A stretch of 64,000 nt of DNA from an uncultured Candidatus Binatia bacterium (GTDB lineage Bacteria; Desulfobacterota; Binatia; Bin18), in contig OZ243961.1 of the NCBI GenBank assembly GCA_965214605.1, positions 3,616,001-3,680,000 on the forward strand. Reading direction: 5' to 3'. Shown here piece by piece: positions 28,454 to 28,630 of this stretch (position 1 is the first letter of the stretch; the number at the start of each line of letters is the position of its first letter). Both the position numbers and the translations under genes were made by a program. The notes beneath the pieces were generated by a model. The model made no database searches and was not told where the DNA came from. It saw only the letters and a program-made list of their open reading frames with translations.

Positions 28454-28630
28454 GCATCTGGTCTTCGGGCCGGATGAGGATTGAAACGACGTGAAAGATG
28501 GTAACCCCAACGGTGACCCGCTACAGGCATCTGGTCTTCGGGCCGGATGAGGATTGAAACTTGGTGTTGCCGATCGCGATGGTCCGCCGCCCGCCCGCAT
28601 CCGGCCTCTGGGCCGGATGAGGATTGAAAC
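28454..28630 (+). CRISPR. CRISPR array, 3 repeats / 2 spacers, type I-C-like
   Basis: 34-nt core GCATCTGGTCTTCGGGCCGGATGAGGATTGAAAC identical at 28454-28487 and 28527-28560; variant GCATCCGGCCTCTGGGCCGGATGAGGATTGAAAC at 28597-28630; 9-bp hairpin and ATTGAAAC end; the 5' repeat boundary may extend about 3 nt. Confidence 0.93.

Follow-up and report, generated by a model that had tools for sequence, protein, structure and literature searches.

The window analysed here is a stretch of 64,000 nucleotides (nt) from an uncultured Candidatus Binatia bacterium, whose genome (G000 in the following) comprises 4.37 Mb and is 99.99% complete. [quoted passage not shown] The first of these spacers encodes a stretch of Cas7 (Csd2), and cas7 is among the genes which the operon next to it has lost. 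The genes and features of the locus are listed with their coordinates in Table 1.

Table 1. Features of the type I-C remnant and its array, with positions in the window.
Feature	Position	Strand	Description
murJ	24478..26058	+	lipid II flippase, left neighbour of the I-C locus; TIGR01695, E 1.9e-104
cas3 remnant, frame 1	26091..26372	+	residues 3-96 of G006 Cas3, start of HD domain; tblastn 82%; TIGR01596 cas3_HD
cas3 remnant, frame 2	26374..27624	+	residues 97-512, rest of HD domain and N-terminal half of helicase; tblastn 83%; TIGR01587, TIGR01596
cas1 C-terminal fragment	27612..27887	+	residues 252-342 of Cas1c (last 91 residues); tblastn 81%
Deletion junction	27616..27625	+	10 nt (CGGCGGTTGC) aligning to both the cas3 and the cas1 side of intact relatives
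cas2 pseudogene	27920..28205	+	tblastn with G006 Cas2 gives three overlapping pieces in different frames
Leader	28206..28453	+	between cas2 and repeat 1; aligns to G006 and G002 leaders at about 72-74%
Repeat 1	28454..28487	+	34-nt core: 9-bp hairpin and 11-nt 3' tail ending in ATTGAAAC
Spacer 1	28488..28523	+	28488-28520 derived from cas7/csd2, DVKDGNPNGDP; 28521-28523 (possibly to 28526) a tail unlike cas7
Repeat 2	28527..28560	+	core identical to repeat 1
Spacer 2	28561..28596	+	best match antisense to G000's own BKACE (PF05853) gene, G000:C1:2698199-2698234 (L158)
Repeat 3, terminal	28597..28630	+	4 differences to repeats 1 and 2; perfect 9-bp stem

Three relatives of the same genus carry type I-C loci (G002, G006 and G007), and in G006 and G007 the flanks are those of the window, with murJ on one side (82% and 80% nucleotide identity, respectively, in synteny) and the same downstream genes. 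Between them lies a complete cas3-cas5c-cas8c-cas7-cas4-cas1-cas2 operon with an array of at least 95 repeats in G006 and at least 92 in G007, both arrays overrunning the loci read; the order cas1-cas2-leader-array is the same in the window. Mapped on the G006 locus (L027, whose coordinates were used for deletion and protospacer alike), the window is without 5,452 bp (13216 to 7763), and cas3 codon ~512 is joined to cas1 codon ~252. Deleted are the 230 C-terminal residues of Cas3, which now ends at about residue 512 of 742, the whole of cas5c, cas8c, cas7 and cas4, and about 252 residues at the N-terminus of Cas1, whose remaining fragment matches TIGR03640 (cas1_DVULG) at profile positions 249-340 of 340. 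The segments meeting at the junction overlap by 10 nt and the two parental sites of G006 are alike at 9 of 10 positions in register, which makes this a microhomology junction. Moreover, the remnant of cas3 is frameshifted at about 26373, an in-frame stop in cas2 at about 28065 can be read directly from the sequence, and the longest open reading frame of the cas2 pseudogene had no family match. As the signature effector genes cas5c, cas8c/csd1 and cas7/csd2 are absent from the window and the genome and present in the syntenic locus of G006, the locus is a remnant and not a working system.

The ratio of nonsynonymous to synonymous substitution rates in comparison with G006 is 0.147 for the cas3 remnant and 0.152 for murJ. 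This equality suggests that most of the divergence accrued under selection and that the inactivation is recent relative to the split of the species. The deletion was not found in any other species of the genus. In G002, G004 and G005 other DNA devoid of cas genes lies between murJ and the downstream genes. It measures about 16 kb at the syntenic site of G004 and about 11 kb in G005 (L204, G005:C8:1062000-1074000), where 20-mers are repeated five times within 1.7 kb at about 1200-2900 of L204.

The array itself consists of three direct repeats within 28447-28630, which end at 28487, 28560 and 28630 and have start-to-start spacings of 73 and 70 nt. In all three copies a 9-bp hairpin is followed by AGGAUUGAAAC, and repeat 1 folds with -14 kcal/mol (z -3.6). 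Type I-C repeats end in an 11-nt 3' handle. The repeats are homologous to those of the I-C arrays of G006, G007 and G002, and the 20-mer at their 3' end occurs three times in the window versus not once in 100 shuffles. Elsewhere in G000 this 20-mer has a single match with three mismatches only. This lone match to the repeat's 3' terminus (GGCGAGACGAGGATTGAAAC) lies at G000:C1:2926534-2926553 on the minus strand, where the k-mer scan found no array. The I-C, I-D and III-B repeats of this genome all end in ATTGAAAC.

Cores 1 and 2 have two derived C>T changes of the stem in common, at positions where core 3 and the consensus of G006 and G007 keep C. The duplication of an already mutated first repeat during spacer uptake would leave precisely such changes. 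On the repeat sequences, supported by the upstream cas2 and leader, spacer 1 is thus confirmed as the newest, leader-proximal spacer; the initial annotation had called it the last one acquired from its place at the leader end and the identity of the adjoining cores. The border between the repeat and spacer 1 is uncertain by 3-6 nt, as the repeats of the relatives measure 37 nt and the match of spacer 2 to its likely source reaches right up to the 34-nt core.

In frame 1 spacer 1 translates to DVKDGNPNGDPL. It is unique in the window, and the whole genome holds no other copy or near match at up to 3 mismatches, the best other match being 15 nt long. The Pfam family Cas_Cas7 (PF05107) matches the genome at spacer 1 only (11.5 bits, E 0.52, profile positions 10-23), weakly so because the stretch is short. 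Csd2 (TIGR02589) was found in 16 of 60 other relatives (61 genomes including G000), among them three of the seven genomes of the same genus, namely G002, G006 and G007. Their proteins read LLF/LVF-DVKDGNPNGDP-DAGN. Spacer 1 agrees with these same-genus genes in 11 of 11 residues and in 28 of 33 nt, the five mismatches being without exception synonymous and at third codon positions; a plain BLASTN search of the region also pairs spacer 1 with the cas7 genes of G006 and G007 (88% over 33 nt).

The type I-C protospacer-adjacent motif (PAM) is given as TTC in the pertinent part of PMC10579709. This triplet stands directly 5' of the spacer-equivalent stretch in the csd2 genes of all three same-genus relatives, the source gene of spacer 1 itself not being among the genes found. 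In a comparison set of 80 motif-bearing csd2 genes of other bacteria from many phyla the triplet before the motif is TTT in 43, TTC in 31 and another one in 6. The orientation of spacer 1 in the array puts the TTC on the correct side, on the strand matching the CRISPR RNA (crRNA). A chance likeness to the Cas7 motif, which we had considered, is excluded by the 11 in-frame residues, the 28 of 33 nt and the PAM register. Judged by its sequence, spacer 1 is certainly a true, PAM-selected CRISPR spacer which derives from that part of a type I-C cas7 gene that is most conserved. Both its cas7 origin and the TTC in front of the target had been proposed initially and are borne out by the relatives.

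The same annotation read the spacer as DVKDGNPNGDP(L), which applies to the first 33 nt. The final 3 nt (CTA) are not cas7-like, since codon 12 after the motif is Asp in 79 and Glu in one of the 80 csd2 genes and Leu in none. Two models for this tail were tried, neither of which accounts for it cleanly. An offset integration with duplication of leader bases, suggested by CTA and the similar 7-nt flanks GCCACAT and GCTACAG, is not supported, as two later substitutions would be needed in a background of about 0.1% divergence. A source cas7 reading GDPL has no counterpart among the 80 motif-bearing csd2 genes. A second csd2 class in the family reads GDPLNGN.

A degenerate search for DNA coding for NPNGDP in 55 genomes of the family returned 22 places (6 in the reversed control), of which 17 are csd2 genes, 4 are chance matches and one is spacer 1, so that only G000 has the Cas7 motif inside an array. 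Besides, 263 spacers were read from the I-C arrays of three relatives, and not one of them has a match in their three I-C operons or in the G000 genome. Cas-derived spacers are rare in these I-C arrays. In G020, a genome of the same family, a csd2 gene is split into two frames (L020 / L025; G020:C1:3804101-3804942, minus strand) and reads FDVKDGNP-DAGNLPRV; it has lost 12 nt in frame, the codons of NGDP, inside the stretch copied by spacer 1.

On the G006 locus the equivalent of the protospacer (L027 10012-9977) lies inside the deleted interval, 3.2 kb from its left and 2.2 kb from its right edge. Together with the microhomology junction this is an anatomy that fits self-targeting survived by deletion. 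The TTC PAM points to uptake by the I-C proteins Cas4, Cas1 and Cas2, and since the uptake genes have been deleted, the spacer would have been acquired before the deletion, unless these proteins were supplied in trans. We give about even credence to the following reconstruction, in which the resident cas7 was hit by the guide, the deletion allowed the lineage to survive and the junction is the survivor's scar. While the operon was still whole, the Cas4-Cas1-Cas2 module would have taken up spacer 1, either from the cas7 of its own operon, situated some 3.3 kb upstream of the leader, or from a near-identical foreign cas7. In the resident cas7 the new crRNA would then have found a TTC PAM and a seed that it matches, and Cascade and Cas3 would have attacked their own operon. 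A survivor may have repaired the damage by joining two 10-nt microhomologies, whereby target and effector were both removed; the essential-looking murJ just upstream would limit the extent of such a deletion. Afterwards the remnant would have decayed through the frameshifts of cas3 and cas2, and one sub-lineage would later have lost the spacer unit by recombination between repeats.

The source of the spacer need not be the resident gene. Exact protospacers were searched in the genome contigs of 185,579 species genomes, in JGI metagenome contigs and in IMG/VR viral contigs, and none with a TTY prefix was found in genome_contigs, viral_contigs or metagenome_contigs. Neither did the 24-nt 3' part of spacer 1, which includes the odd tail, occur exactly in metagenome_contigs, and in the 55 family genomes only the spacer itself was retrieved at up to 3 mismatches. 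Between G000 and G006 or G007 42-46% of the synonymous sites differ (cas3, cas1 and murJ). By our own estimate the lost cas7 would be expected to show about 3 synonymous differences at 7 sites in this stretch, with which the 5 seen are compatible (p about 0.14). A strong synonymous difference from the cas7 of relatives had been proposed as a refutation of self-origin. This test was rejected for lack of power, as unrelated csd2 genes match spacer 1 as well as those of the same genus.

The guide has a broad reach. The 80 unrelated csd2 genes have 3-10 mismatches to spacer 1 in 33 nt (median about 6), and 19 of them combine TTC with a perfect seed. The same holds for the cas7 genes of G006 and G007, two of the three same-genus loci, with 3-4 effective PAM-distal mismatches. 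On these comparisons the resident cas7 would probably have been a target of the guide, whatever the source of the latter. The same reach also suits a reading in which the spacer was taken from a cognate I-C cas7 on incoming DNA, by the resident system before its decay or in trans by Cas4-Cas1-Cas2 of the incoming system, and in which the deletion is unrelated decay. We regard such a foreign origin, with a possible role of the array as a vaccine, as a tentative alternative of rather low probability. It is in line with the motif-bearing csd2 genes of 3 IMG/VR viral contigs, which differ from spacer 1 at 5-7 positions, and with repeats that keep the hairpin and the 11-nt tail, and against it stands that no donor was found. 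The array would in that case be a fossil, or may have been kept for the reason that an incoming I-C system would destroy its own carrier, the anti-cas mechanism shown for type I-F of Escherichia coli; this, too, we consider possible but not probable. A promoter scan detected no sigma-70-like site on the plus strand of the leader, a weak consensus test that speaks slightly against this alternative. Furthermore, the case is confined to a single species, and nothing comparable was found in the 54 other genomes of the family. In the initial annotation the foreign target was either a cas7 on another element or a second locus. The latter can be dismissed, as G000 holds no Csd2, no PF05107 gene and no near match, and a cas7 on incoming DNA survives as a candidate.

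Spacer and deletion were also compared among strains. For this comparison contigs of four public runs (X1, X5, X6 and X7) were aligned to 25500-29500, and the statements below refer to the contigs listed. X1 probably comes from the sample used for the genome assembly, and X7 from another study; in both spacer 1 is unchanged. From a third study, X5 offers one 2.9-kb contig that crosses the cas3/cas1 junction and has 3 substitutions and a gap of 15 nt; X5 is also identical to G000 across the cas3 frameshift. The 2.9-kb contig skips exactly 73 nt (28449 to 28523), so that the deletion is present and the unit of repeat and spacer 1 is absent. X6 has the same 15-nt gap and no contig covering the spacer 1 unit, and no contig of X6 or X7 bridges the deletion junction. 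The 15-nt loss, at 28102 in the cas2 pseudogene, occurs in X5 and X6, from two other studies, and marks a sister sub-lineage of the same deletion-bearing strain; at least X5 also has substitutions at 27740 and 27800.

The flank before the core reads GCCACAG in X5, where repeat 1's left flank is continued by the G from the flank of repeat 2. A crossover within the shared ACA yields this flank with no further change. An ancestral X5 state, on the other hand, would call for an extra point change at 28453, at the border of leader and repeat, in a background of about 0.1% divergence. From these sequences we therefore favour that the X5 lineage lost the spacer unit by recombination between repeats. 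A spacer that is polymorphic among strains sharing the deletion is also what uptake after the deletion would predict, and in this respect the strain data agree with a foreign origin. The extra substitution counts against that agreement, and the absence of the spacer from X5 argues against strong selection to keep it. Spacer 1 is not conserved across lineages devoid of cas genes, being absent from X5 and from every other species of the family.

Spacer 2 provides a second view of what this array has sampled. It agrees with G000's own BKACE gene at 30 of 36 positions and at 23 of the 24 PAM-distal ones, five of the mismatches being crowded into the PAM-proximal 12 nt. Among the six differences are 2-3 amino-acid changes within a conserved IPNS motif, and the flank is TTG, not TTC. 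BKACE orthologues and paralogues in 29 other loci differ from spacer 2 at 10-17 positions. With up to 3 mismatches allowed, neither 55 genomes of the family nor 401 of the class yielded spacer 2, and viral contigs had no exact match to it. By its sequence it resembles a fragment of a cellular gene that is closely similar to that of the host.

The likeness of spacer 2 to a chromosomal gene of G000 would also suit a harmless uptake of self DNA. Interference would already have failed at that time, for example through the cas3 frameshift at about 26373, which is present in X5 as well; Cas4, Cas1 and Cas2 would still have worked, so that self DNA close to the array could have been sampled without cost, and the deletion would be later decay. 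Levy et al. reportedly described a hotspot of spacer uptake beside the CRISPR array in 2015. According to part of a review (PMC6990116), the loss of everything except Cas1 and Cas2 would let self-spacers accumulate. The present array holds two spacers only in place of the many that this predicts, spacer 2 differs from the host gene in the ways described above, and a single genome does not reveal in which order the events took place. We consider a harmless self-uptake unlikely.

Elsewhere in G000 other CRISPR systems were identified: 76 repeats accompany a type I-D system, 25 repeats a type III-B system that includes a CARF protein, and a further array has 96 repeats. These loci are situated at G000:C1:3922753-3930501, C1:1687757-1699000, C1:2301823-2307645 and on contig C2, a 1.2-kb contig made of I-D-type repeats. 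Their presence is the one circumstance in favour of a retained guide repressing another cas operon of this genome, a role that the initial annotation had listed, with a check for another type I-C/I-B Cascade elsewhere. No I-C Cascade was found, as the whole genome has no homologue of I-C-type Cas5c, Cas8c or Cas7 (Csd2) outside the remnant, and the guide would thus have neither an I-C Cascade nor a Cas5c to make or use its crRNA. It also has no genomic target, with no second match at up to 3 mismatches, and its crRNA has the same sense as the cas7 mRNA. A regulatory guide, or a chance resemblance to the motif, is scarcely credible. The spacers of the other arrays of G000 do not match the I-C operons of the relatives, apart from 13-nt chance matches. 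Upstream of the locus, 18461-24193 encode an acyl-CoA synthetase followed by three molybdenum hydroxylase subunits of the 4-hydroxybenzoyl-CoA reductase / xanthine dehydrogenase family (2Fe-2S with Tat signal, molybdopterin and flavin adenine dinucleotide).

Several points weigh against a strike on the resident cas7 survived by deletion. The source gene of spacer 1 was not found in the genome, metagenome and viral collections, and nucleotide identity cannot decide between self and foreign, with 5 of 33 differences to same-genus genes and 3-10 of 33 to unrelated ones. At its end the spacer has 3-6 nt without likeness to cas7, a tail which no model fits cleanly. A deletion of 5.45 kb in an operon of 8 kb takes in cas7 by chance more often than not, and microhomology deletions also occur without Cas3. 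The order of cas3 frameshift, spacer uptake and deletion is not readable from one genome. Spacer 2, with its differences at 6 of 36 positions, is no proof that the module sampled self DNA. Finally, X5 has the deletion without the spacer unit and could represent the ancestral state, the spacer having been added later in trans; we judge this less likely in view of the point change at 28453 and of the I-C proteins that would have to be supplied in trans. Self-targeting survived by deletion had been the first option of the initial annotation. Its anatomy is there, in a 5.45-kb microhomology deletion that removed cas7, and it is a candidate history, not a proven one.

Spacers against cas genes have already been published for type I-F arrays of Escherichia coli. 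The locus described here adds a clear case from a different subtype and lineage and does not represent a novel type of system. Touchon and Rocha dealt in 2010 with an orphan type I-F array with anti-cas spacers as CRISPR3 (PMC2886076, in part), and Almendros et al. (2016, Nat Microbiol 1:16081) call the same arrays CRISPR4 in their title, as quoted in the reference list of PMC7145637. Work of Diez-Villasenor et al. (2010) and Almendros et al. (2016) on them is cited in excerpts of PMC2886076 and PMC8616872. Two competing readings are given in the relevant section of PMC2886076, namely that the spacers caused the loss of the cas genes or that the array guards against cognate systems. Almendros et al. 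showed, as cited in a passage of PMC8616872, that these arrays blocked plasmids with I-F cas genes, which lends a foreign origin of spacer 1 its documented precedent. Our array resembles the I-F arrays in being a very short residual array with a spacer against a cas gene of its own subtype and with its cognate effectors absent, and the same two readings, cause of cas loss or vaccine, apply. It differs from them in subtype and lineage and in having one anti-cas spacer versus several. Part of the operon survives here, so that both breakpoints and the microhomology junction can be read. Unlike in E. coli, where conservation among lineages without cas genes served to argue for selection, the spacer is polymorphic and not conserved across lineages, and it is known from sequence alone. 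Phrase searches of open-access text found no type I-C case of cas-targeting spacers.

Escape from self-targeting by deletion of the target, the cas genes or both is recognised as well (Stern et al. 2010, Lactobacillus acidophilus NCFM, via an excerpt of PMC6990116). As in such genomes, a spacer against cellular DNA adjoins a degraded cas locus in G000. Self-targeting spacers by definition have their protospacer in the same genome, whereas here the target is gone and was the cas operon itself. Similar deletions have been produced experimentally. Type I-C Cas3 generates bidirectional deletions in Pseudomonas aeruginosa, with microhomology-mediated joining, according to what PMC10482374 says of its reference 14, and deletions by type I-G Cas3 in E. 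coli are the subject of PMC10482374 itself. The deletion of G000 likewise spans the protospacer on both sides and has short direct repeats at its junction. In contrast to those of P. aeruginosa it measures about 5.5 kb and not about 90 kb on average, and it is a natural event in which Cas3 may have acted.

The mini-array might also be a kept, working broad-spectrum vaccine against type I-C systems, directed at an invariable stretch of cas7 whose PAM is a Phe codon. We regard this as doubtful. If it were true, any type I-C system entering the cell would be loaded with the resident crRNA and would cleave its own cas7. In that case the absence of type I-C from a lineage that has type I-D and III-B systems would be accounted for, and conserved Cas motifs would be vulnerable points in general, open to exploitation by residual arrays. 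With regard to reach, a guide against such a conserved motif would match PAM and seed in about a quarter of unrelated motif-bearing cas7 genes (19 of 80). Since 2010 it has been debated whether spacers against cas genes bring about the loss of CRISPR-Cas systems, mostly on the basis of the I-F arrays of E. coli, in which the cas genes are wholly gone. In the I-C system of an unrelated bacterium breakpoints, microhomology junction and guide survive together. Events of this type, as the present case demonstrates, escape the standard screens for self-targeting spacers, since their target has been deleted. As near-identical strains with and without the spacer are present in public data, the question whether such a spacer causes the loss becomes testable within one species.

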